Assembly (NCBI GenBank): GCA_963761975.1
Contig: CAVXIR010000002.1
Location: 1,477,912-1,541,911 of the forward strand
Length of the DNA stretch: 64,000 bases
DNA from: Vicinamibacterales bacterium
GTDB taxonomy: Bacteria > Acidobacteriota > Vicinamibacteria > Vicinamibacterales > JAMQPK01
Reading direction: 5' to 3'
The notes below the pieces were generated by a model. It was given only the letters and a program-made list of their open reading frames with translations. It ran no database searches and was not told the origin of the DNA. Below, piece after piece: positions 7,439 through 40,447 of this stretch. The first letter of the stretch is position 1. Each line of letters starts with the position of its first letter. The position numbers and the translations under genes are program-made.

Positions 7439-8163
7439 GGATTAGGGATTAGCAGTCGCGGCTTCGCGTTTTTGCGGTGAGATAGCGCAAACCGCGGCAA
7501 GGGCTCGGCCGCGTAAAGCCAGCGCGTATTGCCGATGGCCGAGATAATTGCCGTGACCAGCAGTCCGATGGCGCCGACGATCCCGCCCACAGCGAACAAC
7601 AACATCTGCACGCCAAACACCGTGACAACGGGCTTGACCGACAGCATGACCGCGCCGATCGCGAGCAGAATGCGCAGTTCGGTCGGCCCCAGACCCCAGA
7701 ACGACATCTGGAATCGGCCGACACAGTACGTCGCGAGGTATATTTCTATCGAGAGAATGTAATAGGCGATCAGGAAAGCGGCCCCGACAATCGGCGTCAT
7801 GTCGCCTGAGATCGCCAGTCCGCCGATGACAAACAGCGCGCCGAACGTGTCCAGGATGTGGTCGACGTAGAAGCCGTACCGCGGTCGTTGATGGCCGCGC
7901 ACGCGCGCCAGCGTCCCGTCGAGGCTGTCGCCGAGCCAATTGAGTACCAGAAAAAACACGACTCCCCACAGAGCCGCAGGTACCTCGCGCTAGATTGCAA
8001 AACAGACCCCGACGTAGAACATCGAGACCAGCCCAAGCCCGGTGAGATGGTCGGAATTGATGCGCGCCGGAAGACGCCCGGCCATCCAGATCAAGACGCG
8101 GCGTTCGATGCCGGTCAGCAGTCCCCTGGAGTTGCGTTGCGCCTCGAAAAATCCGTTTGCCAT
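7435..8163 (-). pseudogene. CDP-alcohol phosphatidyltransferase family gene with an in-frame TAG at 7990-7992
   Basis: ATG at 8163 opens 57 codons (MANGFFEAQRNS...MFYVGVCFAI), then TAG. The same frame then continues REVPAALWGVVFFLVLNWLGDSLDGTLARVR... (DG..AR..G...D...D motif). Confidence 0.75.
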
Positions 8164-13987: not shown

Positions 13988-15768
13988 GCGGCTTCTCCGA
14001 GCAACGCGAGGAATTCCTCGCGCTCCAGACTTCCGTGTACCAACAAAGCCTCCGCCATGCCGTCGAGCACGGCACGGCGGCGGCTCAACGTGTCGACCGC
14101 GTGATCGAACGACCGAGTGAGAAGCCCCTGCACTTCGGCTTCGATGCGTCCAGTCGCTTCTTCGCTCCACTCGCCAGAACCGGAATCGCCTGCGCGGCGC
14201 CCTCGATTGTCGTTCGTCGGGAAGGCAACCGGACCCATGGTGGATGACATGCCGAACTCGCAGATCATCCGGCGGGCCAGATTGGTGGCACGTTCGAGAT
14301 CGTTGGCGGCGCCCGTCGAGAACTTGCCGAACGCGACGTGCTCGGCGGCCCGGCCGCCCAGGAGCACGGCGAGGCGATCCATCAATTCATCTTCCTGAAG
14401 GAGGTTGCGATCTTCCGGCGTCTGCTGCATGTAGCCGAGTGCGGCGAGGCCGCGTGGGACGATCGAGACTTTGTGCACCGGCTCTGCGCTCGCCGCGAGC
14501 TCGGCCACGATGGCGTGACCCGCTTCGTGAAACGCGACGATGCGCCGTTCCTTGGTGTTGATGAGGCGGTTCTTGCGCTCGAGGCCGACGACCACGCGAT
14601 CGATCGCGGCGTGCAGCTCGTTCATCCCCACTTCGCTTTTCTCGTTCCGCGCCGCGAGGAGCGCGGCTTCGTTGAGCACGTTTTCGAGGTCGGCCCCGAC
14701 CATTCCCGGCGTGCGGCGCGCCACGTACTCGAGGTCGACATCAACGGCCAGCTTCACCTTGCGTGCGTGCACCTGAAGAATGGCGTGCCGGCCGATACCG
14801 TCGGGGCGGTCGACGAGCACCTGCCGATCGAAGCGCCCGGGGCGCAACAGCGCGGTATCGAGTATCTCGGCGCGGTTGGTGGCCGCGAGCACGATGATGC
14901 CGTCGTGCGAGTCGAAGCCGTCCATCTCGACGAGCAGCTGATTCAGCGTCTGTTCCCGCTCGTCCGTGCCGCCTCCGCCGTGCGATCCGGAGCGGCTCTT
15001 GCCGATGGCATCGAGCTCGTCGATGAACACAATCGCCGGCGCTTTCGTCTTCGCCTGCTCAAAGAGCTTGCGTACGCGCGAGGCCCCGACGCCGACGAAG
15101 ACTTCGATGAATTCCGACGCGCTTGCCGAGAAGAAGGGCACGCCGGCCTCGCCGGCGACCGCGCGCGCGAGCAGCGTCTTGCCGGTGCCCGGAGGGCCGA
15201 CGAGCAGAGCTCCCTTCGGCACGCGCGCGCCAAGCGATGCGAACTTCGCAGGGCTGCGCAGAAACTTGACGATCTCTTCGAGCTCCTCTTTCGCTTCGTC
15301 GACGCCGGCCACCGAATCGAAGCCGGTTCGCGGGCGGACGTTCTTATCGCGCGAGCGCAAGCGGCCGCGCGTCAGCGACGTCACCGATTTCACCGGGTTC
15401 ATACGCTTGTACGACATGCCGAGGATGAGCACGAAGGTCAGCCCTGCGACGATGCCAAGGATGAGCGAAATATGCGATTCATCAGACTTGATTCCCTGAT
15501 ACACGATGTTTTTCGATTCGAGGAGCGGCACGATCGCGTCGTTGGGTATCGGCGTGGCGACCCACTGAGCAGGCGCGCCTGCCTGCCGCGCAGTTTGCGT
15601 GGGCGTCGCTCGTACTTCAGTCTGTGATATGCGGACTTCGCGGACATCGCCGTTCGCGATGTGCTGCTTCAGCGTGCTGTAGGGAATGTCGACCGTCTCG
15701 TTGGTGCGGCAACCACTGGCGGCGAGCGCCACGAGCAGGAAAAGAGAGAAATAGCGAGTCCACGACAT
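13984..15768 (-). CDS. ftsH: ATP-dependent zinc metalloprotease FtsH
   Basis: ATG at 15768 (the longer ORF would overlap the peroxidase gene). Walker A GPPGTGKT, Walker [13 protein letters not shown] region [18 protein letters not shown], zinc site HEAGHAIV. Confidence 0.95.
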
Positions 15769-15878
15769 GAGTGAAATGTGTTCCGTTGGTGCGGACGGGC
15801 GGGCAGGAGCGCCGACCTCAATGAGTAGTGTAGCAAGGGTCCTACAATCGTCAGACCGGAATTCGTCTTGAACGCCGT

Positions 15879-16430
15879 TCACCGAGTCAGCGCCTTCGCG
15901 ATAGCGCCGCGCAGCTCCGGAGATTCCGGCGTGACGGCGCTGGGAAAGAACGCGACGACCTTGCCATCCTTGCCGATGACGTATTTGGCGAAGTTCCACG
16001 ACGGCAATTGTCCGCTGGCGCCGAGAAACGCATAGACCGGCGACTGGCTGGGGCCCGGGCGGGTTGAGAGCTTCGCGAACATCGGAAAACTGACACCGTA
16101 GTTCTTTCGGCAGAACTCGGCGATCTCTTGAGCCGTGCCCGGCTCCTGGCCGCCGAAATCGTTGCTCGGAAATCCGAGCACCGAAAAGCCCTTCGACGAC
16201 ATCTCGCGATGCAGCTTCTCCAGCCCTTCATATTGCGGCGTATATCCGCACTCGCTCGCCGTATTGACGACGAGCAGTACTTTTCCGCGATAGGCCGCGA
16301 GATCGGCGGGCTGGCCGGCGAGAGTCTGCGTTTTCAGATCGTGAAACGACGCGGGTTGTTGCGACATGAGCGAAACCGAGGTGAGGACCATCAGCATCGA
16401 CGGCGCGAGCGCCAATCTCAATGTCATCAT
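15879..16430 (-). CDS. glutathione peroxidase family protein (with signal peptide)
   Basis: [20 protein letters not shown] and [14 protein letters not shown] motifs. Confidence 0.9.
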
Positions 16431-16522
16431 GGTGTGAGGGTAGCACGGGTGGGGGGCGGAAAATTTCCTTCGCGTCTTCGCGTTGAGTCAGTCCGGCCTG
16501 GGGAAGCTGTGTCGAGCGGCGC

Positions 16523-17749
16523 CTACGCGACGCCTGACGAATGCTGCCGCTGCATCGGGGCCTTCTCGCTGAAATCGTTCATGAAGTTCTCGATCGCCGC
16601 TTCGTCGACGTCGGCGAACTTCACGCCCGTTCGGTAGACCGAGAGGCTCGTGCCCGGCTGCTCGTAGACGACCCACACGACTCGGCCTTTACAGATGAGT
16701 TGTCCCGTTGCGGTCGGCACGACGAGTCGCACCAGCTGGTTCGGCTTGACCGCCTGTCTGAGAATCGCCTGTGCGCCGCCGCTTGAGAGATCGACGAGCT
16801 CACCAGGGATGCCGTCGACGTTCACGTCGATGCCGCGGCGAATCTTGACGCGTTTGGCGTCCCGCGCCTTTTCAGAGAACTGCAACGGCTTCTTCTGACC
16901 GCTCGCCAACTCGACCGGCGCGGGGCTCGGCGGTGGAGCGGTCTTGGCGGGCACGACTTTCACAGGCGCTGGCCTGGCGAACTCTTTGTGAGGCGAGATC
17001 ACCTGGGTCGCAGGAGTCGACGGCGCGCGGGCCGGTTCACGCTCGCGAAGCATCTGTGACAGTGCGCCAGACAGCTTCTGACTGACCGCTTCGAGCTGAT
17101 GACATTGCGCTTCAGCGGCGGCTTTGGCGGCGGTGACGGTCTTGACGCGCTCCAGCAGCTCGGCGCGTTCGACGGACAAGTCCTGCACCTGCTGCTGCGA
17201 AGCTGTCAGGCTGGCGCTCTTCGTCTCGGCGTCGCGTTGGGCGTTCTTCAGCTTCACCTGGAGATCGGCGAGCTGCGCCTGAGCCGTCTCGAGCGCCGTC
17301 GTCAGCTTCCTCTGCTCGTTGAGGGTTTCAGCGTGTTGCGCCTCCGAGGCTCGTTGCGCGGCTTCCGCTCGGGCCGCTCTGTTCTGAGCCGATTCGACGT
17401 CCTTCTTCGCGGCTTCGAGCGCGGACCGGAGCGCGGTGCCGGCGGTGATCTCCGAGCTGAGACGCGCGCGCAGTTCGGTTTCGATGGCAGCGAGCGCCTG
17501 CGCCGCCGCGGATTCGGCCTGTTTCCGCGCGTGGTTGGCGCGCTCGGCCGCCGCATGGGACAGATGCTTGACCGCGGTATCGACGGTGGCCGCGTGGCCG
17601 GCCTCGTCCAGAGCCGCTTCGATGGATGAGAGTTGGCGATCAAGTGCGGCCCGAAGTGTCCTGAGCTGCAGGTGCCAATTCTCAGAGACCTGGTGCGTCA
17701 GGGTCTCGAGCGAGGCGCGAATTTGAACGTCTTCGTTTTGGTTGTCCAT
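16523..17749 (-). CDS. coiled-coil protein with C-terminal PilZ domain
   Basis: ATG at 17749. Long Ala/Glu/Gln heptad-like region. C-terminal RVKIRRG...DLSSGGAQ matches the PilZ RxxxR / DxSxxG motifs. Confidence 0.75.
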   Translation of the reverse strand: MDNQNEDVQIRASLETLTHQVSENWHLQLRTLRAALDRQLSSIEAALDEAGHAATVDTAVKHLSHAAAERANHARKQAESAAAQALAAIETELRARLSSEITAGTALRSALEAAKKDVESAQNRAARAEAAQRASEAQHAETLNEQRKLTTALETAQAQLADLQVKLKNAQRDAETKSASLTASQQQVQDLSVERAELLERVKTVTAAKAAAEAQCHQLEAVSQKLSGALSQMLREREPARAPSTPATQVISPHKEFARPAPVKVVPAKTAPPPSPAPVELASGQKKPLQFSEKARDAKRVKIRRGIDVNVDGIPGELVDLSSGGAQAILRQAVKPNQLVRLVVPTATGQLICKGRVVWVVYEQPGTSLSVYRTGVKFADVDEAAIENFMNDFSEKAPMQRQHSSGVA

Positions 17750-17975
17750 CACAGCCCCGTGGTCAAAGGACCTTATTTCAATCCCGCGCGGAAGCAATTG
17801 TGGTACCCGCGCTCGACCTTCGGATTTTGTCGCGGAGCCGCGTTTTCGCCGCACGATTTTGCAAGCGTAAGACGATTCCTGTATGCGGACGGGAGTGGGC
17901 GCACCGGCGCGTTTTTGGCCGTGTTTGTGCCGGTATTCCCTTGGGAGTGCCGACCTTCGGGTCGGACATCAGCAG

Positions 17976-18473
17976 TTACCGCGCCTTCAGAAAGACGTTC
18001 TTGCCGACCGAGGTATTCGGCGCGTTCGCGGATCGGACGACGCCGGTGCCGCCGGTTTGATAGCCGTGCTGCACCACGAGACTGACCTCAACCGCCATTT
18101 CAGTTGCGGCGGGATTGAGGCTCCGCGCTTCCTCGATCGTGACAGCTTGATTATTGATGTGGGTCACCAGGTACGTGAGCAGCCTCGATCCGTCCCAACG
18201 GAACGTCCCCATCGGTTCTCCGGCCGCAGCTGTTTTCGATCCGACTGGAACGTATCTCACCACCTCGGTGGCTCCATTGCGGGTCGTCTCGACTCGCAAC
18301 TCATCCGGCGCCTGACGGATGGCGAGCGTCACCGGACCAATGGGAGTGCCCTGAGCGGCAGCCTCGCTCCGCGACAAATCCATCGTCCAGGTGCCGGAGA
18401 AGTCGGGGATCGCCTGAGCAAAGCCGAGGGAGCCCAGCGCGGCGACGAACACGCTCAATATCAGGGTTTTCAT
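17976..18473 (-). CDS. secreted hypothetical protein
   Basis: ATG at 18473. Signal peptide MKTLILSVFVAALGSLGFAQA. Beta-rich. Confidence 0.55.
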   Translation of the reverse strand: MKTLILSVFVAALGSLGFAQAIPDFSGTWTMDLSRSEAAAQGTPIGPVTLAIRQAPDELRVETTRNGATEVVRYVPVGSKTAAAGEPMGTFRWDGSRLLTYLVTHINNQAVTIEEARSLNPAATEMAVEVSLVVQHGYQTGGTGVVRSANAPNTSVGKNVFLKAR

Positions 18474-18637
18474 GCCGGCCGATCGTGCAACGGCGATACC
18501 ACTGAACAGTCGACCGATTGCTCCAGAACGAAGAGAGTCGCCAATGATCGTGCATCGATCTGCGTCACAAGGTTCTGGCAATGGACGCCCCCCTTATCTG
18601 TTATCCTCATCGGCATCCATTTTCAGGAGGAGCACAC

Positions 18638-19279
18638 ATGAGGAAGTTGTTGGCTCTTTTGGCTCTCATAACAGTCGGTACCGCGATCGCGGCGCAGCAG
18701 GGTCCGGCCAACACGCTCACCGCAAAGGAAAAGTCCGAGGGCTGGAAACTGCTCTTTGACGGCGCCACGCTGAATAACTTCGTGCCTCAAGGCAAAGCGC
18801 AGTGGAAGGTGGTCGACGGCGCCCTGCGGCCCGAAGTGGCCGGCGGCTGGCTTGCGACGAACGAGGACTTCACGAATTTCCAACTCCACGTGGAGTTCCG
18901 CACCAGCGCGCCGAACATCAACAGCGGGGTCTTCTTAAGGCGCGGACGCCAGGACGGCGACTCGCACCAGATTGGCTATGAACTGCAGATCAGGAATCCG
19001 TCTCCAGGCGATAAGCCCTACGACGGGAAGAGCGACAATCACAACGCCTACTACACCGGCAGCTTCTCCGGACATCTGAAGAGCAAGAACGAGCCGACGG
19101 TGATCATGGGGCAGTGGCATTCCTTCGACGTGACGGCCCAGGGCGACCACTTCATCGTGATGTTCGACGGTAAGAAAGTACTGGACGATCGTCACCCGGA
19201 ATTCAAGTCAGGTGCGGTCGGGCTGCAGCGCACGGGCCAGGACATCGAGTTCCGCAGCATCAAGATCAAGCCGCTGTAA
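18638..19279 (+). CDS. DUF1080 (3-keto-disaccharide hydrolase-like) secreted protein
   Basis: ATG at 18638 after AGGAGG. Contains GWKLLFDG..L.NF, NFQLHVEFR, SGVFLR and a C-terminal IEFRSIKIKPL. Confidence 0.8.
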   Translation: MRKLLALLALITVGTAIAAQQGPANTLTAKEKSEGWKLLFDGATLNNFVPQGKAQWKVVDGALRPEVAGGWLATNEDFTNFQLHVEFRTSAPNINSGVFLRRGRQDGDSHQIGYELQIRNPSPGDKPYDGKSDNHNAYYTGSFSGHLKSKNEPTVIMGQWHSFDVTAQGDHFIVMFDGKKVLDDRHPEFKSGAVGLQRTGQDIEFRSIKIKPL

Positions 19280-19306
19280 CACCGCATCAAGCCGCTGTAA
19301 CACCGC
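19265..19306 (+). repeat. Perfect 2 x 21-bp tandem duplication spanning the DUF1080 stop codon
   Basis: atcaagccgctgtaacaccgc occurs twice in direct succession. The first copy contains the TAA stop at 19277-19279. Confidence 0.9.
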
Positions 19307-19449
19307 GAGAAGAGCGTGGCGCCAGGAATTTCCGGCGCCACGTCGCTTCCAGTGCAGGGATGGTTCTGGGTTCTGGGCGCTACGTTCTGGGTTCGCTCAC
19401 GAGCCAGGAACTGCGAGCGGGGATCCCAAGCCCACGACCAGCTCCCGGG

Positions 19450-19455
19450 TATAAT
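19450..19455 (+). promoter_or_regulatory. Possible -10 box (TATAAT) for tRNA-Leu
   Basis: A perfect TATAAT ends 28 nt upstream of the tRNA 5' end. No good -35 was seen. Confidence 0.3.
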
Positions 19456-19483
19456 GTTGTTCCTGCCCTCGAGGATCTCCACT

Positions 19484-19570
19484 GCGGAAGTGGCGGAACT
19501 GGCAGACGCGCTAGCCTCAGGAGCTAGTGGGCGCAAGCTCATCGGGGTTCAAATCCCCGCTTCCGCACCA
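19484..19570 (+). tRNA. tRNA-Leu (anticodon CAG), CCA encoded
   Basis: Acceptor stem GCGGAAG/CTTCCGC. Anticodon stem CTAGC/GCTAG with loop CTCAGGA. Long variable arm. T-arm CGGGG-TTCAAAT-CCCCG. 3' ACCA. Confidence 0.95.
19514..19570 (+). repeat. attL core (57 bp, 3' part of tRNA-Leu from the anticodon loop to CCA)
   Basis: Identical by eye to 42041-42097. Its last 20 nt also recur at 47806-47825. Confidence 0.85.
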
Positions 19571-19850
19571 TCAACCAAACCCGTCGTGACGGCTCTTTCT
19601 GAGGTTTCTCGTCCGCTTTTGATATAGGTAGCGGGGGCGCTCCACGTTCGCTTGTGCGACGTGTGTGCGACTTTGCTGTAGGCACGAGAGAGCCGTCTGA
19701 TCAGGAATCAGAAATTACACCTCAGCTAGACGCGTCTTCGCGAGGAGGACCGTTTGGCATATGCTGCGGGCCTCTGGGTTGGCAAAAATACGGCCAGCTA
19801 GGATTCGGCGCTCCCGAACCCACGAGACGGCGAAATCCTGGACCAACGCG

Positions 19851-21866
19851 ATGCCTGACCACAACTATTTTGCGAATTTGATCTGGCAGATTGCCGACCT
19901 GCTGCGCGGCCCATATCGTCCGCCTCAGTACGAGCGGGTCATGTTGCCCATGACGGTCTTACGCCGGTTCGACTGTGTGCTCGCGCCCAACAAGGCCAAG
20001 GTGGTGACCGAATACGAACGATCCAAGGACAAGTTCAAGGGCGATGCTCTTGACGCAAGGCTGAATAAGGCTGCCGGCCACCGCTTCCACAATCATTCGG
20101 CACTCGATTTCGAAAGGCTCAAGGGCGACCCGGATCACATCGCGCAGCACTTGGTGAGCTACATAAAGGGATTCTCCGGTAACGTGCGTCGGATCTTCGA
20201 GTACTTCGAATTCGAGAATGAGATCGAGAAGATGCGAGAGGCGAACATCCTATATCTCGTTGTCTCAAAGTTCTGCGACGTGGATCTGACTCCGAGCGAT
20301 GATCCCACGACGGGCGTTCCGAACTATCAGATGGGGCTTATCTTCGAAAACCTCATCCGCCGCTTCAACGAACTCGCAAACGAGACGGCGGGCGATCACT
20401 TCACACCGCGAGAAGTTATCCGTCTTATGGTGAGCGTCCTTTTCATGCACGACGACAAGCTGCTCGCCACTCCCGGCACCATCCGCAAGCTCCTAGACCC
20501 CGCCTGCGGTACGGGTGGCATGCTGGCTGAGGCCCAAAATTACCTGCGCGAGCACCACAGCGCTGCACGTCTTTACGTTTACGGACAGGACTACAACAAG
20601 CGCGCATTCGCTACCGCGGCCTCCGACATGCTGATGAAGCAGGTCGACCGCAACGAAGGCGAAAACAAGATCCGTTTCGGCGACAGCCTGATCAGCGATC
20701 CGAAAGAAGGCGACCAGTTCGCGGGGGAAACCTTCGACTACTTTCTCACCAACCCGCCCTTTGGTGTGGACTGGAAAAAGCAGCAGAAGGAGATCGAGCG
20801 CGAACACGACAAGCTCGGGTTCACGGGCCGCTTCGGCGCTGGATTGCCGCGCATAAACGACGGCTCGCTTCTCTTCCTGCAGCACATGATCGCCAAGTTT
20901 GAACCGGTGCGCCCGGCTGAGCACAAGCACGGCTCGCGCCTGGCGATCGTGTTCTCGGGCTCGCCCCTTTTCACGGGCGGCGCCGGTTCAGGCGAGAGCG
21001 ACATCCGGAAATGGATCATCGAGAACGATTGGCTCGAGGCTGTTATCGCCCTTCCGGAGCAGATGTTCTACAACACAGGAATCGGCACCTACGTTTGGAT
21101 TGTCACCAATCACAAGGAGAAGCGCCGCAAGGGCCGGATCCAGCTTCTCGACGCGCGCGAGTTCTGGACGGCTGGTGGGAGCCAGGAGAGCAAGCGCAGT
21201 CTGGGTGACAAGCGTCGACACATTACTGGGGCTCAAATCGATGACATCGTACGGCTCTACGGTCGCCTAGAAGAGACCGAGCGCTCGAAGACGTTCGACA
21301 CTGCCGATTTTGGTTACACAAGGGTGACCGTCGAGCGTCCGCTGCGCCTGCGTTACAGAATGACCACCGATGGCAAGGCGCGTTTCCTCGACGCCTGTCC
21401 GCACTTGCTCGACGACATACAGGACATTGACACGGTGCTCGGCCGTGAGCCTTTATGCGATTGGAACGCTGCCTGGGTGCGCATCCAGGAAGTACTGCGT
21501 GCTCGTCGCTCGCGTTGGAAGGCGACCGAACTGAAGCTTTTCCGCAGCGTCTTCACCGAGAAGGCCCCAGAGGCCGAGCCCGTCCTGAGAGGCGGGCGCG
21601 GCGAGGGTTACGAACCCGATGCCGAACTGCGGGACTTCGAGAATGTGCCACTCAAGACCGACATCGACACCTATTTCGAGCGGGAGGTGCGCCCCCACGT
21701 GCTCGACGCGTGGATAGATCGTAGTAAGGACAAGCTAGGCTACGAGATCAACTTCAACCGGCAGTTCTATCTGTATACGCCCCCGCGTCCGCTGGAGGCG
21801 ATCGATGCAGATCTGAAGAATGCGGAGGAAGAGATCGTGCGGTTATTGCGGGAGGTGACGAAGTGA
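19851..21866 (+). CDS. hsdM: type I restriction-modification system, N6-adenine DNA methyltransferase subunit M
   Basis: ATG at 19851. HsdM N-terminal region (IWQIADLLRG). SAM motif LDPACGTGGML. Catalytic FLTNPPFG. Confidence 0.95.
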   Translation: MPDHNYFANLIWQIADLLRGPYRPPQYERVMLPMTVLRRFDCVLAPNKAKVVTEYERSKDKFKGDALDARLNKAAGHRFHNHSALDFERLKGDPDHIAQHLVSYIKGFSGNVRRIFEYFEFENEIEKMREANILYLVVSKFCDVDLTPSDDPTTGVPNYQMGLIFENLIRRFNELANETAGDHFTPREVIRLMVSVLFMHDDKLLATPGTIRKLLDPACGTGGMLAEAQNYLREHHSAARLYVYGQDYNKRAFATAASDMLMKQVDRNEGENKIRFGDSLISDPKEGDQFAGETFDYFLTNPPFGVDWKKQQKEIEREHDKLGFTGRFGAGLPRINDGSLLFLQHMIAKFEPVRPAEHKHGSRLAIVFSGSPLFTGGAGSGESDIRKWIIENDWLEAVIALPEQMFYNTGIGTYVWIVTNHKEKRRKGRIQLLDAREFWTAGGSQESKRSLGDKRRHITGAQIDDIVRLYGRLEETERSKTFDTADFGYTRVTVERPLRLRYRMTTDGKARFLDACPHLLDDIQDIDTVLGREPLCDWNAAWVRIQEVLRARRSRWKATELKLFRSVFTEKAPEAEPVLRGGRGEGYEPDAELRDFENVPLKTDIDTYFEREVRPHVLDAWIDRSKDKLGYEINFNRQFYLYTPPRPLEAIDADLKNAEEEIVRLLREVTK

Positions 21867-23152
21867 ACGAGCGGACCGACCTTCCGTCGGGGTGGGCCAA
21901 TCCGCCCGTGTACGCACGCTATTCCGTGCAGCTTGGGAAGATGCTTGATGAAAAACGAATCATCGGAACGCACCTCGCTCCATACCTGAGAAATGTGGAC
22001 GTGCAGTGGGATGGAGTGAACACCCACGATCTACCATTGATGGATTTCACCGAGGAGGATCGCGAGCGCTACAACCTGCGAAAAGGTGACCTACTGGTCT
22101 GTGAAGGTGGCGAAGTGGGGCGTACGGCTGTATGGAAAGGCGAACTGGCAGAATGCTTTTTTCAGAAGGCGATCCACCGTTTGAGGCCGACAAGCGATCG
22201 CGATGACCCTCGATTCTTTCGATACTTTATGCGGATGTCGGTCGATCGCGGGGATTTTGCTCTAAGCACGGCAAGCACTATCCAGCACCTCACAGCTGAA
22301 AAGCTTCGCGTGGTCAGATACCCCGCTCCGCCGGCGGGTCAACAGCGGGCGATCGCCGACTACCTCGACCGCGAGACCGCGAGGCTAGATGCGCTAGTCG
22401 CGGCAAAGGAGCGCCTGCTTGGATTCTTGGCCGAGAAGCGCCGGGTGCTTATCACCCGCGCCGTAACCCGCGGTCTCGAGACGAACTTTCCACTCCGCAA
22501 TTCGGGGAATCCATGGCTGGGCGAGATTCCGGCGCACTGGCAAAGCGGGTGTATTCGAAGGTTCGCAACGATGAAGACGGGGCATACGCCAGATCGAAAC
22601 CAAGCCGAGTACTGGCGCGATTGCGATATCCCTTGGTTCACACTAGCGGATGTGTGGCAATTGCGCGACGACCGTGAGATTTATTTGCGTGAAACGAAGG
22701 AGCGCATCAGCCAACTTGGGCTTGCTAATTCTGCCGCTGAGCTTCTGCCCACAGGAACCGTCGTGTTCTCTCGCACGGCTTCGATCGGCTTCTCCGGTAT
22801 CATGCCGCAACCTATGGCAACAACGCAGGACTTTTGGAACTGGATACCGGGTCCCAAGCTCTCCTCTGAGTACTTGCTTTACGTGTTTCGAGCTATGCGA
22901 CCGGAGTTCGAGCGTCTCGCATTCGGATCCACGCATCGGACAATCTATCAACCGGAGGCAGCAGGTTTGAGACTCGCGATCCCTCCGCTTACCGAGCAGC
23001 ACGAAATCGTCCGACACATTAGTACATCAACGGCTCACCTCGACGAGATCATTTCCGCGACAGAGCGGACTATCTCCCTCATTCAGGAGCGCCGTACGGC
23101 CCTTGTCGTCGCTGCCGTGACAGGTCAGATTGACGTGGCGGCAGCGGCATGA
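21863..23152 (+). CDS. hsdS: type I restriction-modification system, specificity subunit S
   Basis: GTGA overlap with hsdM. Two-TRD architecture with a central conserved helix (QQRAIADYLDRETARLDAL) and a C-terminal repeat (EQHEIVRHIST...LIQERRTALV). Confidence 0.9.
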   Translation: MNERTDLPSGWANPPVYARYSVQLGKMLDEKRIIGTHLAPYLRNVDVQWDGVNTHDLPLMDFTEEDRERYNLRKGDLLVCEGGEVGRTAVWKGELAECFFQKAIHRLRPTSDRDDPRFFRYFMRMSVDRGDFALSTASTIQHLTAEKLRVVRYPAPPAGQQRAIADYLDRETARLDALVAAKERLLGFLAEKRRVLITRAVTRGLETNFPLRNSGNPWLGEIPAHWQSGCIRRFATMKTGHTPDRNQAEYWRDCDIPWFTLADVWQLRDDREIYLRETKERISQLGLANSAAELLPTGTVVFSRTASIGFSGIMPQPMATTQDFWNWIPGPKLSSEYLLYVFRAMRPEFERLAFGSTHRTIYQPEAAGLRLAIPPLTEQHEIVRHISTSTAHLDEIISATERTISLIQERRTALVVAAVTGQIDVAAAA

Positions 23153-24402
23153 TTGTGACGCGCTGCAAGCTCGCGAACGTGCGCGCCATAGAAGCGGCCG
23201 AGTTTCGTTTCCATGCGGGTTTCAACCTCATCGTCGGCGTCAACGGTGTCGGCAAGACGAGCGTGCTCGATGCGTTGGGCGTGTGCCTTTCCGCAGTAAC
23301 GAAGCAGGTCAACAGCCTTCGGGGTCGGATCCACTCCCTCACGCACGATGACATCCGAATAGGCGCCAAAGCGTTAACAATAGAATGCAGTGTCAGCATC
23401 GGCGAGCGGGAAAGCACATACCTACTACACAAGCCCCGAGAGACAAGCGTTCCGCAACGCATGAAGGCGGGGATACCGCGAGAACAGGTCCACGACACAC
23501 CCGAGAGGGCGGAGTTCCTCGGCGAGGCGCCGGCCCCAGTGCCGGGCACGGAACCCGGCGGCCGCCCATTGGCCGTGCTGTTCTCTACCAATCGGGCTGT
23601 GCCGTCCGAGCGGGCGCCGGGACAGAGTGTGGCCGCCGGCGGGATCGCTGCCGCCTTCGCCGATGCCTTCGCGAAGCGGGAGCTGCGCCTCGGTGAGTTC
23701 GGGGCGTGGATGCGCGTGCAAGAGTCGCTTCGGATGGAGCGGCGCGCTGCGGCACACGCGCTCGCGGCATTCGGCGATGCTGTGACGCGTTTCCTCCCCG
23801 ACTACAGCAATCTGAGATTGGCTGGTGGCGACGGGCGGCAGCTCTGGATCGACAGAGGCAGCACGGCGATTCCGGTCCGACAACTCTCAGACGGTGAGCG
23901 GGGTACCCTCGCGCTGGTGTTAGACCTGACCCGCAGGTTGGCACAAGCCAACCCTGGACTCGCTGATCCGGCGGCCGAGGCCGGCGCGATTGTGTTGATC
24001 GATGAGGTCGATCTGCACTTGCACCCGAAGTGGCAGCGGCAGATCGTCCACAGCCTGGCCGCAACCTTTCCGCTTTGCCAGTTCATCGCGACGACCCATT
24101 CCCCACAAGTAATCGGAGAAGTCGAGCCCGAGCGGATACAAATCATCGCGGACAGTCAAGTTTACTCGCCGACGCACTCCTACGGCGTGGATTCAAGTCG
24201 TGTGTTAGAAGAGGTGATGCACTCCGACCCTAGGGCAAAAGAGGTCGGGGACTTGCTTTTGGAGATCTCCCACGTAATTGACAAACGGCAGTTCGTTCGT
24301 GCGCGGGAATTGCTGGCCGAGATCGTCGCGCAACTCGGTGAGACCGATCCCGAGGTGACTCGGATCAGCACTCTTCTCGATTTCGTAGAGGGGAAGGAAT
24401 GA
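23149..24402 (+). CDS. ptuA: ABC/AAA_15-21-type ATPase, Septu PtuA-like
   Basis: ATGA overlap with hsdS. Walker A GVNGVGKTS, LSDGERG signature-like motif, Walker B VLIDEVDLHLHP, H-loop TTHSPQV. Confidence 0.65.
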   Translation: MIVTRCKLANVRAIEAAEFRFHAGFNLIVGVNGVGKTSVLDALGVCLSAVTKQVNSLRGRIHSLTHDDIRIGAKALTIECSVSIGERESTYLLHKPRETSVPQRMKAGIPREQVHDTPERAEFLGEAPAPVPGTEPGGRPLAVLFSTNRAVPSERAPGQSVAAGGIAAAFADAFAKRELRLGEFGAWMRVQESLRMERRAAAHALAAFGDAVTRFLPDYSNLRLAGGDGRQLWIDRGSTAIPVRQLSDGERGTLALVLDLTRRLAQANPGLADPAAEAGAIVLIDEVDLHLHPKWQRQIVHSLAATFPLCQFIATTHSPQVIGEVEPERIQIIADSQVYSPTHSYGVDSSRVLEEVMHSDPRAKEVGDLLLEISHVIDKRQFVRARELLAEIVAQLGETDPEVTRISTLLDFVEGKE

Positions 24403-25049
24403 GGGCGATCGTTAAGGGTGCAGAGCCCGCGAGCCTCGCTACGCATCGGCAGGCACCTCATTGCGACTACGACAATTACGACGATAAGGCTGCGCTGAGA
24501 TATGCCCTTGTGGGCGAGCAGCGCGGGATCTGCTGCTACTGCATGGGGCGCATCCGCAACCACCCAACCATGATGAAAGTCGAGCACTGGCGGTGCCAGA
24601 GTAACCATGAAACAGAGCAGCTCAATTACCTCAACCTACTCGGCGCGTGCCCAGGTGGGGACGGGAAGCCACAGCACCTCCAGCACTGTGACACGAGGAA
24701 AGCCGACCGCGATATCAAATGGAACCCAGCCGATCCCTCACACTACATCGAAACGCGACTGCGCTATGAACTCGACGGAAGCATTCAATCCGACGACGCC
24801 GACTTCGACACGCAGCTTAACGACCTGCTGAATCTCAACCTCGCAATTCTCAGGAACAATCGGAAGGGCGTCCTCGCTGCCGTTCTCCAGTGGTGGCGGC
24901 ATGAGAAAGCGAGGATTGGTGGGGCGGTCCCCCGCGATCGCTTCGAGCGCGAGCGCGCGCGACGAACGAGGGGGGCTGGAGAACTCGAGCCGTTCAGTCA
25001 GGTCGCGGTTTGGTGGCTCGAGCAGCGGCTGGCGAGAATGAACGTATGA
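24399..25049 (+). CDS. ptuB: HNH-type nuclease-like protein (TIGR02646-like), Septu PtuB-like
   Basis: ATGA overlaps on both sides. GICCYCMGRI...KVEHWRCQS...LNYLNLLGACPG...HCDTRKA matches the Cys/His/Asn pattern of that family. Confidence 0.65.
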   Translation: MRAIVKGAEPASLATHRQAPHCDYDNYDDKAALRYALVGEQRGICCYCMGRIRNHPTMMKVEHWRCQSNHETEQLNYLNLLGACPGGDGKPQHLQHCDTRKADRDIKWNPADPSHYIETRLRYELDGSIQSDDADFDTQLNDLLNLNLAILRNNRKGVLAAVLQWWRHEKARIGGAVPRDRFERERARRTRGAGELEPFSQVAVWWLEQRLARMNV

Positions 25050-28000
25050 AGGATACCCGCCATTCCGAAGGGGCCTTCGAGACTGTCATCGAAGCCAACC
25101 TGCTGGGACATGGATACACTCGAATCGACCGTGAGACGTTCGACCGGGAGCGCGCGATTTTCCCGGAAACCGTCTTGGACTTCATTCGCAAGACGCAGCC
25201 CGGCGAGTGGGCGAAGCTGGAGGCCCTACACGGCGCCAGAACGGGCGAGCAAGTGCTCGCGGACCTGTGCAAGTGGATGGACACGAATGGGTCATTGTCC
25301 ACGTTGCGGCACGGGTTCAAGTGTTACGGCCGGCCGCTTCGGATCGCTTTCTTCAAGGCGGCACATGAGCTAAATCAGGAGCTTGAGGCCCGATATGCGG
25401 CGAACTGCTTGGGGCTGACCCGCCAGCTCCGCTTTTCAACCCGGTCAGAGAAGTCACTCGATGTTACGCTCAGCTTGAACGGCATTCCTATCGCGACAGT
25501 CGAGCTAAAGAACCATCTTACAGGCCAGACCGTGGAGGATGCTCTCAGCCAATACAAGCGCGACCGCGACCCCCGAGAGACGATCTTCGAGTTTAAGCGG
25601 CGCACCCTCGTGCACTTCGCCGTCGATACCGAGGCCGTGCGCATGACGACGCGACTGGCCGGTAACGCGACACACTTTCTGCCCTTCGACAGAGGTAGTG
25701 AAGGCGGCGCCGGGAATCCACCGGATCCTGCTGGTCGCACGTACCGCACGGGCTATCTCTGGGAGGAGGCGCTGCAACGCGACAGCCTGCTCGACATCCT
25801 GGCCCGCTTCATCCACCTTCAGATCGAAGAGAAGCGTGACGACCAAGGTCGCAAGGTGAAAGTCGAGAGCATGATTTTTCCGCGGTACCACCAACTTGAT
25901 GCCGTGAGACGGCTGGTCGACGCGGCTCGCACCGAGGGTGTGGGGCATAACTACCTCGTCGAGCACTCGGCCGGCAGCGGCAAGAGTAATACGATTGGCT
26001 GGCTCGCGCACCGGCTGGCCTCCCTGCATGACGCCGTCAATCAGCGCGTCTTTAATAGCGTGATCGTCGTCACGGACCGCGTTGTATTGGACCAACAGCT
26101 CCAGGACACGATTTACCAGTTCGAGCACAAGAGAGGGGTAGTACAGAAGATCGACGAGCGATCCCGACAGCTCGCAGAGGCCCTAGAGAACGCAGTGCCG
26201 GTCATCATCACCACGCTGCAAAAGTTCCCCTTCGTCTCGCGCCAGTTGCTGAAGATGGCCGAAGAGCGCGGCGAGCATGGGAGCGGAACGCTGCCCACAC
26301 GGCGCTGTGCGGTGATCGTTGACGAGGCCCACAGCTCGCAGAGTGGTGAAGCGGCGACGGATCTCAAGGAGGTTCTCGGCGGCGAGGAATTGCTCGAAGA
26401 GGCACGCAAGCGCGCCGCCGAAGAGCAACGCGATAACCTGGAGGAGCTCTTCCGCAGCATGGCGAAGCGCGGGCGACAGTCGAACCTGAGCTTCTTCGCG
26501 TTCACCGCCACACCTAAGCACAAGACGCTCGCCGTGTTCGGCCGTAGCGGCGAGCCGATCCACCGCTACACCATGCGTCAAGCTATCGAGGAAGGCTTCA
26601 TCCTCGATGTGCTCAAGCACTACACGAGCTACGCAACCTACTACAAGCTGCTAAGGGCCTCCGAGGACGATCCCAATGTCGAGCGCAAGAAGGCAGCAAT
26701 AGCACTCGCGCGCTTTTTACGGCTGCACCCGCACAACATCGCGCAGAAGACGGAGGTCATGGTCGAGCACTTCCAGGCCGTTACCCGCCACAAAATTGGC
26801 GGCAGGGCGAAGGCGATGGCCGTCACGGGATCGCGGTTAGAGGCGGTGCGGTACAAGCAGAGCTTCGACCGTTACATCAAGGAGAAGGGTTATGCCATCA
26901 AGACGCTCGTCGCTTTTTCTGGCGCGGTGCAGGATGACAAAATTCCGGATATGGCATACACCGAAGAGAAAATGAATCTCGGCATCCGGGAGAAGGAGCT
27001 TCCTGAGAAATTCGCGACACAGGAATATCAGGTGTTGCTCGTTGCCGAGAAGTACCAGACTGGCTTCGACCAGCCCCTTCTGCACACGATGTACGTTGAC
27101 AAGCGCCTGGCGGGAATTCAAGCCGTGCAGACCCTCTCACGGCTCAACCGGACGCATCCTCTCAAGGAGGATACGTTCGTGCTCGATTTCGTGAACGACC
27201 GGGAAGAGATCCGTGAGGCGTTTAAGGTGTACTACGAAGGGGCGGTCATGGGCGAGGAGGTCGATCCCGCCCGGATGTACGCAATTGAGGGCGAGCTCGA
27301 CGCATCGGGCGTTTATCTGGACGAGGAAGTGGAGCGGTTCTGCGCTGTGTACTTCAAGCCGAAGCAGCGGCAAAGCCCACAGGATCACCAGGGGATGAAC
27401 GCGGCGCTCGATCCAGCCGTCTCGCGGTTCGGCGTCTTGCAGAATGAGAAGGAGGATGAGGCAGAGCTATGGCGAGGTAAGGTGCAGGCGTTCCGGAACT
27501 TGTACGGCTTCCTGAGTCAGATCATTCCGTACCAGGACTCCGACCTTGAACGGCTGTTTGTATTCCTTCGCCATCTGGCGGCGAAGTTGCCGCGCCGCCG
27601 GAGCGGCCCCGCTTACCAGTTCGACGACGAGGTACGCCTTGAGTATTACCGTCTGCAGAAGATCAGTGAGGGCTCGATTTCCCTCAAGAATGGCTATGCG
27701 CAGCCACTGGACGGCCCGAAAGAGGTAGGGTCCGGCTTCGTCCGTGAGGATGCAGTGCCGCTCTCGCAATTGATCGAGGTAGTCAACGAGCGCTTTGGTA
27801 CTGACTTCAACCAAGCAGACCAACTCTTCTTCGATCAAATCGTTGAAGCCGCGGTGACCGACGACGGATTACGTCAGGCAGCTGCTGTAAATCCGGAGGA
27901 GAAGTTTGAACTGGTATTTCGAAATCTGTTGGAGCAGCTGTTCGTCGAACGCATGGATCAGAATGAGGAGATTTTCGTCCGGTATATGAACGACGCATCT

Positions 28001-28087
28001 TTCAGGGAGATCGTGAGTAGGTGGATGGCATCGGAAGCATACCAACGCCTAAGCGCCAATTCAGAAGCAACTTACCGTAAGGTGTGA
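25046..28087 (+). CDS. hsdR: type I restriction endonuclease subunit R
   Basis: ATG at 25046. N-terminal nuclease region. Helicase motif I HSAGSGKSNT and motif II VIVDEAHSSQSG. Later motifs FTATP, LLVAEKYQTGFDQP and QTLSRLNR. Confidence 0.95.
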   Translation: MKDTRHSEGAFETVIEANLLGHGYTRIDRETFDRERAIFPETVLDFIRKTQPGEWAKLEALHGARTGEQVLADLCKWMDTNGSLSTLRHGFKCYGRPLRIAFFKAAHELNQELEARYAANCLGLTRQLRFSTRSEKSLDVTLSLNGIPIATVELKNHLTGQTVEDALSQYKRDRDPRETIFEFKRRTLVHFAVDTEAVRMTTRLAGNATHFLPFDRGSEGGAGNPPDPAGRTYRTGYLWEEALQRDSLLDILARFIHLQIEEKRDDQGRKVKVESMIFPRYHQLDAVRRLVDAARTEGVGHNYLVEHSAGSGKSNTIGWLAHRLASLHDAVNQRVFNSVIVVTDRVVLDQQLQDTIYQFEHKRGVVQKIDERSRQLAEALENAVPVIITTLQKFPFVSRQLLKMAEERGEHGSGTLPTRRCAVIVDEAHSSQSGEAATDLKEVLGGEELLEEARKRAAEEQRDNLEELFRSMAKRGRQSNLSFFAFTATPKHKTLAVFGRSGEPIHRYTMRQAIEEGFILDVLKHYTSYATYYKLLRASEDDPNVERKKAAIALARFLRLHPHNIAQKTEVMVEHFQAVTRHKIGGRAKAMAVTGSRLEAVRYKQSFDRYIKEKGYAIKTLVAFSGAVQDDKIPDMAYTEEKMNLGIREKELPEKFATQEYQVLLVAEKYQTGFDQPLLHTMYVDKRLAGIQAVQTLSRLNRTHPLKEDTFVLDFVNDREEIREAFKVYYEGAVMGEEVDPARMYAIEGELDASGVYLDEEVERFCAVYFKPKQRQSPQDHQGMNAALDPAVSRFGVLQNEKEDEAELWRGKVQAFRNLYGFLSQIIPYQDSDLERLFVFLRHLAAKLPRRRSGPAYQFDDEVRLEYYRLQKISEGSISLKNGYAQPLDGPKEVGSGFVREDAVPLSQLIEVVNERFGTDFNQADQLFFDQIVEAAVTDDGLRQAAAVNPEEKFELVFRNLLEQLFVERMDQNEEIFVRYMNDASFREIVSRWMASEAYQRLSANSEATYRKV

Positions 28088-28156
28088 TCGGGTTCTCTGC
28101 ATCTGTCGGTCGTTGCGCGAGGCCGACATTCGAACCTCTCTGACGCGATCAGGAGG

Positions 28157-29365
28157 TTAGCTGGTTACGTGGACAGATCGTGCGGCCTCGAATCGTTCGA
28201 GCACCGCCTGTCTGCGTATTCCACTCGTTGCGAGATATCGGCTGGTTGTGACGACGTTCGTGTGTCCGACCCAGTCGCTGACGTCGTGCAGCGAAACGCC
28301 TGGCGTCTCCAAAAGCCGCGAGGCGAACTCCCGTCTGAGATCATGAAAGTGCAAGCCAACGATCCCGGCCATGCGCCGGCATTCATCCCAATCTTCGCGA
28401 ATCGACTCGCGCTTCTCCCCGATTTCGTCGCCGAATACGTATGAGCCAGCTCCAAACTCATTTCCGGAGGGATCGTGCTTCCTAGTCTCAAGCACTGCTC
28501 TCAGTCGCGAGGTAAGCGGAACCGCGCGTGCTTCATTCGTCTTCGTCTTGCCTGCCGGTAGCAGGATGATGTTCTCCTCGCGTTTAACTTGACCCCATTG
28601 GAGCGAGAGCAGTTCGCCGAGACGACAGCCTGTTTCAAGCGCCGCAACGATGATGGCCTTCAAATCGGGTGTCGCGTTTGCTAGAAGCTTCTCCTCCTCA
28701 CCGGCTTCCAGCCGCCGCGATCGAGGCGCCTCGGCCGATGAGTTCAGCTTCACGACGGTCACGCCATGCCGCTTAAAGGGTGTCGATTCTGTATAGCCCT
28801 CGGCGATCGCCCATGAGAACAGATGCCGCAGTCGCGACAGCAGCCGATTTGTGCCGACCTCGCCGCCCTTCGCGCGCGGCTTGTGGACACGCGACGCCTT
28901 CCTGAGTTCCTCGACGTCAGCCTTCGTGATCTCGGTAAGCGGACGTTCCTCGAATTTCACTTTGCCGAATGGTCCAGCGGGAATCTCGATGTTACGCAGT
29001 CGCCGAACCATCAGCTCCATCATGACGCGACCACCTTCCCGGCGCGTCGGAATCCTGACGTGCTGCTCGAGGTAGATGTCGGCGAGACGACCGAACGTCA
29101 TCGGACCGGCTACAGTCTGTTCTACCAGCTGACCCGCAAATTTGCCCGATCGAATCTGACTACGAAAGTTGTCTCGGTACCCCTCAGCTTCGGTCTTGCC
29201 CATCACGTACTCGGGCGGCTTGCCTGCAGCCTCGTTCAGTTGGAATCGGTACTCGCGGCCTCGGAATTTATAGAAGAAGTGCCAGGGATGACTGCACTTC
29301 GACCACTTCCTCCAGCCACATGGGCAGCGTTTCCGGATATTGTGGCAACGATGGGTATGTCTCAT
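28157..29365 (-). CDS. int: tyrosine-type site-specific integrase
   Basis: 402 aa. Contains ETGCRLGELLSL (catalytic Arg), HFHDLRREFASRL (HxxR) and GHTNVVTTSRYL (Tyr). Confidence 0.9.
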   Translation of the reverse strand: MRHTHRCHNIRKRCPCGWRKWSKCSHPWHFFYKFRGREYRFQLNEAAGKPPEYVMGKTEAEGYRDNFRSQIRSGKFAGQLVEQTVAGPMTFGRLADIYLEQHVRIPTRREGGRVMMELMVRRLRNIEIPAGPFGKVKFEERPLTEITKADVEELRKASRVHKPRAKGGEVGTNRLLSRLRHLFSWAIAEGYTESTPFKRHGVTVVKLNSSAEAPRSRRLEAGEEEKLLANATPDLKAIIVAALETGCRLGELLSLQWGQVKREENIILLPAGKTKTNEARAVPLTSRLRAVLETRKHDPSGNEFGAGSYVFGDEIGEKRESIREDWDECRRMAGIVGLHFHDLRREFASRLLETPGVSLHDVSDWVGHTNVVTTSRYLATSGIRRQAVLERFEAARSVHVTS

Positions 29366-29741
29366 GGCATCATCCGCACGCGCGATTCAATTTCCAGTAA
29401 AACATGGCGAATATGTGGCGCACAATTTATCGTCCGAATATGTTTTAACCCTCTGAACGATCTGCGCCGCCATCTGAATCTCCCACAGTCAAAAGTCGCG
29501 CACGAGAGGGCTTCGGTTTGTCCTCGGAACTCACGGAGCGAGCCAGCGAAGGTATAGACCGCACCTAGATCGTCCGTGGCCTCCGGAGGCAAGTCGAAGG
29601 CGCCGTGTGACCCATCACGGGAGACGATCTCGATAGATGGTCGCTGGTATAGTGCAGACCGTCGCACGTGTGCGACTTCAGTTGTTCGGAACTCCCGTCA
29701 GAACGGTGCAGGCTTGCGTTCCGCACTAGCTGCACACGCTA

Positions 29742-39307: not shown

Positions 39308-40447
39308 TCAGGCAAGGTTCGCCAATGCCTGTAGTGATGGAGGAAGCTTCTGAAGCCGAACGGACGTCCATTCCAGATCTTCGTAACCGGCGTCGGTACG
39401 ACGGGCCGTGCCTTCTACTTCGGCTGTGAGGGTCACTTGCTTTTCACGGGTCTCTACGCGCGACTCGGACATCAGGCCTGCAATCAACGATATTGGACCG
39501 CGCGGCTCGACGATTTCACCGACTCTCACCTGTGGGGATGGAGGGTAAACGGTCACGTCGACAGAGGCGCGGAAATGTGCTGTGACCGAAACACTTAGCG
39601 TCACACTTTCGCCGGGATCGACCAGGCCGAACGTTGGTGAGACATCTACATTCTGAATTTCGATGCGTTCAAGATCTGAAACCGACCGCAATCTCTCCGA
39701 AAAGCCGGTAAATTCGGATATCGGTGCGCGAAGATTATCCTTAATGTATGTTGTTAGGCGTTGCTCGTCTGCCGTCACCACTGTCGATGCCTGCTGTTGG
39801 GATGTGTCGATCAGATTTCGAATGACGAGGTCAAATTCACTGCGGATCGTCTTGACCGTGTCTTCTAACGACATCACTCTTAGATTGACCTCTGCAACAC
39901 GAGCGACCTCTTCCGTCCCCTTGTAATCGCCGTCAGCGGAGACGATTACCGCGACTTCATCGTGGTCGCTCTGCTGTAGGTGTTCGAGGACTGACTGATA
40001 GATCAACACATCGCCCAAACCGTCCCCGTCCGCATCAAACGGCCGTTGACGATTCAGGCGCATCACAAATATATCTTCTAGTGAGCGAGTGGTCATTGGC
40101 ACCGTCTGAAGCTCGAAGTCAGCTACGATCTGCGCAACCTGGTCGCGATAGCTCGCTAACACATCATGTGTGGGTGGTGCAACGGGGGCGGCCAACCTGG
40201 GACGTCCAGCTCGCGAGAGAAACTGATTGAGGGGGCGCGGCGAATTGATAAATTGGGTGGCGGTTTGCTCGTATTCACGTTTGAACTGCGCTTCAAGCTC
40301 CTTCTCGACAGCCGACGGCAAATACAGAGTGGCATCCGGCAGGCGTTCTCTCACAAGTGTCAACAAGTTTCGTAGCTGGGTCGAAATCTTTGGCCATTGT
40401 GAAGCGGTCAGTGGCTCGCTGTCGAGGTACACTCTGGTGAACGGCAT
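39308..40447 (-). CDS. PIN-like (DUF4935-type) domain protein with unknown C-terminal domain
   Basis: N-terminal VYLDSEPL, then acidic positions (EKELE, FDADGDG, IVSADGDY), as in PIN-like DUF4935 proteins. The C-terminal ~180 aa are beta-rich. Confidence 0.55.
   Translation of the reverse strand: MPFTRVYLDSEPLTASQWPKISTQLRNLLTLVRERLPDATLYLPSAVEKELEAQFKREYEQTATQFINSPRPLNQFLSRAGRPRLAAPVAPPTHDVLASYRDQVAQIVADFELQTVPMTTRSLEDIFVMRLNRQRPFDADGDGLGDVLIYQSVLEHLQQSDHDEVAVIVSADGDYKGTEEVARVAEVNLRVMSLEDTVKTIRSEFDLVIRNLIDTSQQQASTVVTADEQRLTTYIKDNLRAPISEFTGFSERLRSVSDLERIEIQNVDVSPTFGLVDPGESVTLSVSVTAHFRASVDVTVYPPSPQVRVGEIVEPRGPISLIAGLMSESRVETREKQVTLTAEVEGTARRTDAGYEDLEWTSVRLQKLPPSLQALANLA

Follow-up and report, generated by a model that had tools for sequence, protein, structure and literature searches.

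The 64,000-nucleotide (nt) stretch of Vicinamibacterales DNA analysed here (contig CAVXIR010000002.1, positions 1,477,912 to 1,541,911; hereafter the window) carries at 19851-28087 what is probably an anti-phage operon with two layers, located on an integrative island at tRNA-Leu: a Type I restriction-modification (R-M) system with a Septu pair, ptuA and ptuB, embedded between hsdS and hsdR. On balance we consider the PtuAB pair autonomous, with the embedding giving it co-regulation, co-transfer and stabilisation. The components and the principle of embedding are already known, and the locus in the window is an ordinary, well-preserved member of its kind. The novelty is that hsdM-hsdS-ptuA-ptuB-hsdR forms a five-gene unit that is widespread, co-diverges and has a PtuAB lineage of its own; its two halves may act jointly or separately. 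The five genes, in this order and all with intact open reading frames (ORFs), are:

19851-21866, + strand, hsdM: Type I N6-adenine DNA methyltransferase, 671 amino acids (aa), motifs DPACGTGG and NPPF
21863-23152, + strand, hsdS: specificity subunit, 429 aa, two target-recognition domains, GTGA overlap with hsdM
23149-24402, + strand, ptuA: predicted Septu ABC-type ATPase, 417 aa, ATGA overlap with hsdS
24399-25049, + strand, ptuB: predicted TIGR02646-type HNH nuclease, 216 aa, ATGA overlaps on both sides
25046-28087, + strand, hsdR: Type I restriction subunit, 1013 aa, ATGA overlap with ptuB

The four start/stop overlaps of 4 nt each (GTGA at 21863; ATGA at 23149, 24399 and 25046) were read directly from the sequence and, like the five + strand ORFs, are as a first-pass annotation of this DNA had described them. 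Longer starts are possible for hsdM (ATG at 19761) and hsdR (TTG at 25010). The shorter forms are preferred because homologues begin at their residue 1, as seen in alignments with the 671-aa HsdM, and because the overlaps are kept elsewhere, which for hsdR favours 25046.

By its motifs and profile matches, the embedded pair is a Septu-type PtuA/PtuB. The ATPase matches the PADLOC PtuA model PDLC00271 (1.8e-112) over residues 1-415 of 417, aligns with the solved Septu PtuA (PDB 8ee4_A, 3.1e-35) and with retron PtuAs, and also matches Pfam AAA_21 (2.8e-23), AAA_15 (1.2e-15) and SMC_N. The 25 PADLOC matches listed for it are nearly all PtuA models, plus one retron I-A ATPase model and AriA. It carries Walker A GVNGVGKT (K36), signature LSDGERG, Walker B LIDEVD (D285/E286) and H-loop TTHSP (H317), with K36, D285/E286 and H317 invariant in 26 homologues. 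Its neighbour ptuB follows directly on the same strand through the overlap at 24399; the product matches PADLOC PtuB PDLC00322 (4.4e-70) over its full length and contains CCYC (45-48), EH (62-63), N79 and H96-C97, with H63 and N79 invariant in homologue alignments. Defence by the Septu system Ec-B88 needs Walker A/B and HNH residues, to which K36, D285/E286, H317, H63 and N79 correspond here (PMC13096335). The Septu call had first been made from an ATPase standing next to a TIGR02646-type HNH protein, and profile searches of 23149-25049 bear it out through the full-length PtuA and PtuB matches, AAA_15 and AAA_21, and the match of PtuB relatives to a solved PtuB described below; PtuB itself scores 49 bits against TIGR02646, slightly below the cut-off of 52.15.

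PtuB has no Pfam match, and its single sequence gives a marginal match in PDB (E = 0.0057). An AlphaFold2 model built from 32 close homologues (mean pLDDT 47.6, pTM 0.33) was too poor for a fold search, so a family profile, built from 22 proteins that occupy the PtuB position in related operons, was searched against PDB sequences instead. This profile matched the solved PtuB 8ee7_C over its full length (1.9e-24), retron PtuBs (~1e-16) and the Cas9 HNH domain (3e-4). The best NCBIfam matches of PtuA (1.5e-65) and PtuB (2.2e-23) both fall under the retron-Ec78 equivalog cut-offs (222 versus 500 and 83 versus 150, respectively). An association with a retron (type I-A/Septu type II) was considered and rejected: there is neither a reverse transcriptase nor a retron non-coding RNA, Rfam finding only tRNA over 18500-30000, and the neighbours of ptuAB are hsdS and hsdR.

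The flanking genes are predicted to form a complete Type I R-M system of a divergent family. HsdM matches Pfam HsdM_N (6.4e-24) and N6_Mtase (6.6e-51) and, over its full length, PADLOC MTase_I PDLC03029 (1e-250). HsdS matches Methylase_S in two stretches and PADLOC Specificity_I (2e-93), and HsdR matches HSDR_N, SWI2_SNF2, ResIII, T1R_D3-like and TIGR00348 (1.3e-60). The PD-ExK residues of HsdR (D139/E153/K155), its Walker A GSGKS (310-314) and DEAH (426-429) are invariant in 16 homologues. Across related loci, HsdM is 52-82% and HsdR 59-88% identical to the window copies. The divergence appears in missed NCBIfam equivalog cut-offs (hsdM 77.5 versus 242.75; hsdR 205.7 versus 284.55), in the nearest solved HsdR, EcoR124I, matching at only 6e-13 in the PDB search, and in PADLOC REase_I models that match HsdR only in part (6e-36), so automated surveys may under-call this Hsd family. 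Membership in MADS or Hma was rejected: mad2, mad3 and mad5 matches are far weaker than those to Type I models, and neither a 5-methylcytosine methylase nor an Hma helicase is present. We note that mean identities of 67-71% for HsdM and HsdR across phyla are unusually high for defence genes, yet these proteins are far from characterised Type I enzymes.

The five-gene order recurs across many phyla, which identifies it as an inherited unit. The 120 best matches of PtuA in a database search share 70-81% identity with it, and nearly all have exactly 417 aa; the few with a taxon name are from Deltaproteobacteria, Dormibacteraeota, Desulfobulbaceae and Phycisphaerales, and the loci closest to the window come from Acidobacteriota-type and other metagenome-assembled genomes. 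A PtuA-seeded scan with one genome per species yielded 80 loci, 48 of which have hsdM-hsdS-ptuA-(HNH gene)-hsdR. When the set is limited to PtuAs with at least 34% identity over most of their length, 48 of 51 loci share this order and the same Type I family, with HsdM 52-79% and HsdR 64-85% identical to the window. The hosts span about a dozen phyla overall, including Gamma- and Alphaproteobacteria, Acidobacteriota, Spirochaetia, Latescibacterota, Cyanobacteria, Verrucomicrobiota, Bacteroidota, Chloroflexota, Clostridia, Binatia, Gemmatimonadota and Planctomycetota. At the 18 loci in which tblastn failed to pick up PtuB, the ORF in the PtuB position has HNH motifs in every case, of the TIGR02646 type in 16 and of a more classical type in two (L004 and L041). 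The whole module is also found on the IncP conjugative plasmid 1 of Ketogulonicigenium vulgare WSH-001 (KVU_RS14095-14115), where PGAP labels the genes methyltransferase, subunit S, AAA family ATPase, retron system putative HNH endonuclease and type I restriction endonuclease, and on three IMG/VR contigs (predicted viral). Independent look-ups agree. One genome, L178, keeps hsdM-hsdS-ptuA-ptuB intact and has a degraded hsdR, of which only remnants are left (residues 1-50 and 173-221; 7898-8140).

The overlaps recur with the order. In PtuAB-bearing related loci, exact 4-nt overlaps occur at 54-80% of junctions (hsdM-hsdS 52/65, hsdS-ptuA 47/67, ptuA-ptuB 46/77, ptuB-hsdR 41/76), and the remaining junctions are mostly gaps of 20 nt or less, despite protein identity down to 34-40%; this arrangement exceeds chance. 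The pair had been described as spliced into the operon, with comparison to orthologous operons proposed as a check. The picture of a local splice does not hold, since the module is widespread and 48/51 related loci share its order, and the expected linkage to R-M genes in other genomes was found. The conservation of motifs, overlaps and synteny likewise led us to reject both a one-off insertion and a selfish cassette in decay.

This PtuAB lineage resides near-exclusively in one Hsd family and co-diverges with HsdM and HsdR. Mean pairwise identity is 67% for HsdM, 71% for HsdR, 40% for PtuA and 34% for PtuB, and pairwise distances are correlated between PtuA and HsdR (Mantel rho 0.52), PtuA and HsdM (0.68) and PtuA and PtuB (0.54; all p = 0.001); PtuA thus tracks the Hsd proteins as strongly as it tracks its own partner. 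In the PtuA tree, one large clade is almost entirely R-M-embedded, with stand-alone PtuAs of other taxa as outgroups. The sole intact pair without hsd genes inside the embedded clade, at locus L067, lies between hemE and hemF and is nested among alphaproteobacterial embedded members; a further locus without hsd genes (L020) is truncated by transposases.

The junction between hsdS and hsdR acts as a cassette slot. PtuAB is found there most often and was probably the ancestral cargo. An HsdR-seeded metagenome scan, blind to cargo, gave 80 loci with HsdR 59-88% identical to the window; the 64 that were informative carry at the junction:

PtuAB: 38/64 loci (59%)
A ~390-aa helix-turn-helix/Peptidase_M78 (ImmA/IrrE) protein plus a ~165-175-aa DUF4411 protein: 10/64 loci
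Other cassettes: 13/64 loci
No cargo: 3/64 loci

The other cassettes include a PDC-M31A ATPase with RhuM/PDC-S05, PDC-S18/DUF5655 and DUF6398. All three empty junctions fall in the HsdR outgroup, at ~61-63% identity. Placed on the HsdR tree, cargo requires 20 parsimony changes (26 with shuffled labels); PtuAB prevails throughout the clade of at least 64% identity and the alternatives are scattered, which suggests that PtuAB is ancestral and was sporadically replaced. In sister operons whose HsdR shares 80-85% identity with that of the window, the cargo is ImmA/IrrE-DUF4411 or another non-PtuAB cassette, and the Hsd proteins therefore show no PtuAB-specific adaptation. At four loci (L093, L119, L134 and L142), PtuAB shares the slot with a second cassette in tandem; in L093 and L119, two of the 38 PtuAB loci, the second cassette is the ImmA/IrrE-DUF4411 pair. 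Such tandem cassettes amount to a miniature defence island within an operon. The ImmA/IrrE-DUF4411 pair, the second commonest cargo (seen in L084 at 6326-7998, L124 at 6269-7989, L125, L132, L139, L147, L154 and others), may be an uncharacterised defence or toxin-antitoxin pair; the ImmA/IrrE protein has weak PADLOC matches only (RmrA/capP), and the DUF4411 protein has no PADLOC match.

Defence genes nested between genes of another multi-gene defence system form the basis of 'guilt by embedding' in Payne et al. 2024, and the window operon fits that definition of an embedded cassette. The first-pass annotation cited prrC but missed that embedding at hsdS-hsdR is a published phenomenon; PrrC, Rlo, DarTG2 and TgvAB are established cases of defence genes inside Type I operons. 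DarTG2 in the RRDM island of enteropathogenic Escherichia coli, TgvAB in VPI-2 of Vibrio cholerae and RloA-H in Campylobacter occupy the same slot on the same strand and share co-expression with R-M, but the cargo in the window is Septu. The island with DarTG2 defends as a whole, DarTG2 not having been separated from R-M there. Cassettes PDC-M31A, PDC-S05 and PDC-S18 of Payne et al. 2024 occur in sister loci of the window family. That study reports Septu as commonly embedded in Hma, not in Type I R-M, and PrrC almost exclusively in Type I R-M; it does not report how deep and exclusive the link between this Septu lineage and one Hsd family is, and the supplementary files examined contain no 'Septu' or 'PtuA' entries. 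The literature searched, which left most subscription journals outside its scope, describes neither Septu embedded in Type I R-M nor a Septu lineage specialised for it; it likewise describes no Hsd-PtuAB coupling, in agreement with the earlier statement that none was established.

Septu type I (PtuA/PtuB; Doron 2018; 8EE4/8EE7; Ec-B88) likewise has an ABC ATPase gene followed by a TIGR02646 HNH gene. It is a free-standing two-gene operon, however, whereas the pair in the window is nested in, and translationally coupled to, hsdMSR and belongs to a separate lineage found almost only in the R-M context. PtuA of Septu type I has 465-552 aa; that of the window has 417 aa, owing to a shorter region between Walker A and signature. 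Septu type II, or retron type I-A (Ec78, Ec83), also attaches PtuAB as an effector module to another system, but with a reverse transcriptase and an msr/msd non-coding RNA, neither of which adjoins the window ptuAB. PrrC of EcoprrI is an ABC-ATPase-regulated nuclease between hsd genes whose lineage, too, is almost exclusively embedded. It is one polypeptide, with an N-terminal ABC ATPase and a C-terminal anticodon-nuclease domain, whereas the window encodes two proteins and an HNH nuclease; PrrC is absent among the 25 PADLOC matches listed for PtuA, and its masking by Hsd proteins is demonstrated, whereas for the window PtuAB such coupling is only an analogy. PARIS (AriAB) enters through a weak secondary match of PtuA to AriA (1.9e-24, C-terminal part), and the partner in the window is an HNH protein, not TOPRIM.

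We favour a scheme in which a single mRNA would be translated in the order HsdM, HsdS, PtuA, PtuB, HsdR. The R-M layer would cut incoming unmodified DNA, and PtuAB would form a biochemically self-sufficient second layer: an ATPase-nuclease complex, silent in uninfected cells, that on infection cuts tRNA or DNA and halts phages that have got past the R-M layer. Through embedding, the pair would be co-regulated with the R-M genes, transferred horizontally along with them and stabilised by them, without depending physically on Hsd proteins. The autonomy of PtuAB is supported by the stand-alone pair at L067, by stand-alone Septu, which defends by itself (PMC13096335), and by TgvAB, which protects when cloned alone from its Type I operon, 10- to 100-fold less against several phages than the whole cluster (PMC11411939). 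As to targets and cues, Septu Ec-B88 (PMC13096335) and retron-Eco7 PtuAB (PMC11555353) cleave tRNA-Tyr in its variable loop, Septu of E. coli ATCC 25922 cuts DNA, and a 2026 review gives phage single-stranded DNA-binding protein as a Septu cue (PMC12904381). Behind this scheme stand intact genes, conserved catalytic motifs, overlapping frames, deep conservation of the module and cassette turnover at the junction.

Several observations weigh against it. Within the window's PtuAB clade, ~97% of members lie in one Hsd family, a tighter linkage than would be expected of a freely moving cassette and the same pattern that singles out PrrC in Payne et al. No junction is empty in the HsdR clade of at least 64% identity, so the R-M system may profit from, or need, a partner. 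A simple consensus scan finds no sigma-70-like promoter in 19300-28400, including upstream of hsdM, and a simple scan of the same region finds 6 terminator-like sites against 8.1 expected from shuffled sequence. These scans are consistent with a single transcription unit without proving one, and since they gave no positive support, the operon claim rests on overlaps and synteny; of the earlier statement that the five genes are read as one unit, the conserved overlaps and synteny stand and the single transcript is consistent but unproven.

Closer integration is possible, if doubtful: one Type I family may have captured a PtuAB lineage as a dedicated back-up effector, the five proteins forming one integrated system whose nuclease is held back by the restriction complex, or signals its state, and is unleashed once a phage has neutralised restriction. 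In the specific form modelled on PrrC, which we regard as rather unlikely, HsdMSR would physically hold PtuAB inactive until a phage disables the restriction enzyme with an anti-restriction factor (a DNA mimic of the Ocr/ArdA type or an Stp-like peptide); PtuAB would then be released, and PtuB would cut tRNA or DNA and abort the infection. The position of ptuAB is the same as that of prrC, itself described as almost exclusive to Type I R-M, and the near-exclusive embedding, the co-divergence with HsdM and HsdR, the overlaps kept across related loci and the filled junctions of the closer HsdR clade all agree with a guard of this kind. So does the behaviour of relatives: retrons restrain a PtuAB effector with multicopy single-stranded DNA, and retron (PMC11555353) and stand-alone (PMC13096335) versions cut tRNA, as PrrC does. 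Co-divergence, however, is expected from linkage alone, L067 persists as a stand-alone pair, L178 keeps hsdM, hsdS and ptuAB with only remnants of hsdR, and sister operons with 80-85% identical HsdR carry other cassettes. The comparison with prrC/EcoprrI drawn in the first-pass annotation therefore survives for position and for near-exclusive linkage to one Hsd family; the coupling it suggested is not established, given the swapped cassettes, L067 and the activity of TgvAB alone.

PtuAB could instead recognise phage anti-restriction proteins, or another cue such as phage single-stranded DNA-binding protein or ATP depletion, without touching Hsd, and be kept as a complementary activity in the manner of PARIS. 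This would be compatible with alternative cargos and stand-alone relatives, with the ABC-ATPase core that PtuA shares with AriA, with the Septu cue named in the 2026 review, and with the recurrence of ATPase-nuclease pairs as cargo of Type I operons and Hma (RloA/B, PDC-M31A, HEC systems of Hma). It is an improbable reading all the same: the operon has no TOPRIM partner of the AriB type, and the argument is one of analogy only. That PtuAB is part of the restriction enzyme itself, for example as an extra nuclease/ATPase that changes how it cleaves or by controlling restriction during establishment, would suit a very stable module translationally coupled to both hsdS and hsdR, but we find it very hard to credit. 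HsdR retains invariant PD-ExK and helicase motifs, sister operons swap PtuAB for unrelated proteins or, in distant members, for nothing, and PtuAB homologues are proven independent defence effectors (PMC11555353, PMC13096335).

Having its own lineage and a conserved unit, the embedded form is a variant architecture by the logic that defined Septu type II. Defence systems are usually studied singly, and here a Septu lineage and a Type I family have moved jointly, as a translationally coupled operon, across about a dozen phyla as well as plasmids and proviruses. Should the operon be all that the two halves share, the module is a clean, abundant example of an hsdS-hsdR cassette slot, and the sister operons with swapped cargo (PtuAB, ImmA/IrrE-DUF4411, RhuM and others) form a natural series for studying such slots. 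If the halves are coupled, PrrC-style guarding of restriction enzymes would be a general strategy for which different nucleases can serve, and the coupling would hint at what Septu senses; the captured lineage would then be a second, independently evolved PrrC-type guard made from a Septu module, parallel to the co-option of PtuAB by retrons. Plasmid 1 of K. vulgare WSH-001, a cultured and annotated example, makes the question of coupling directly testable.

The operon begins 280 nt downstream of a tRNA-Leu(CAG) gene whose 3' end is repeated at the far end of the surrounding island. The repeats look like the bounds of an integrated island of ~22.5 kb, with two elements in tandem possible: a 20-nt repeat remnant lies at 47806-47825, 5.7 kb past the right copy. 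G+C drops to 0.53-0.59 at 33-43 kb. Features of the island and its edges are:

19484-19570, + strand, tRNA-Leu(CAG): found by ARAGORN; Rfam RF00005, 56 bits
19514-19570, + strand, left direct repeat, attL-like: the 3' 57 nt of tRNA-Leu
28157-29365, - strand, tyrosine integrase: Pfam Phage_integrase, 4.6e-23
29788-31938, IS630-family (DDE_3) transposase in two tandem copies: the first split into 247-aa and 196-aa ORFs, the second intact (350 aa, 30886-31938)
32287-33720, - strand, D5_N/DUF5906/Pox_D5 primase-helicase-like protein: island cargo
36842-37645, - strand, DUF429 protein: island cargo
39308-40447, - strand, PIN_12 protein: island cargo
42041-42097, + strand, right direct repeat: exact 57-nt match to 19514-19570, far end of the island
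43234-45906, - strand, Ser/Thr protein kinase of 890 aa with PD40/WD40-like beta-propeller repeats: just outside the island

The integrase and primase pair resembles the backbone of satellite or integrative elements. An ENA contig from another assembly (L161) is 99.4% identical to 14630-34403 of the window, with 13 gap openings over 19.8 kb; its hsdS is shortened to 271 aa and its hsdR is split into ORFs of 286 aa and 727 aa, differences due either to an error of assembly or to a strain whose R-M system is broken. On the Phocaeicola dorei plasmid NZ_CP072250.1 (L163), a single 617-aa gene at 6001-7851 fuses a PtuA-like ATPase to an HNH protein and adjoins RloB, TIR and SIR2 genes in a plasmid defence island.

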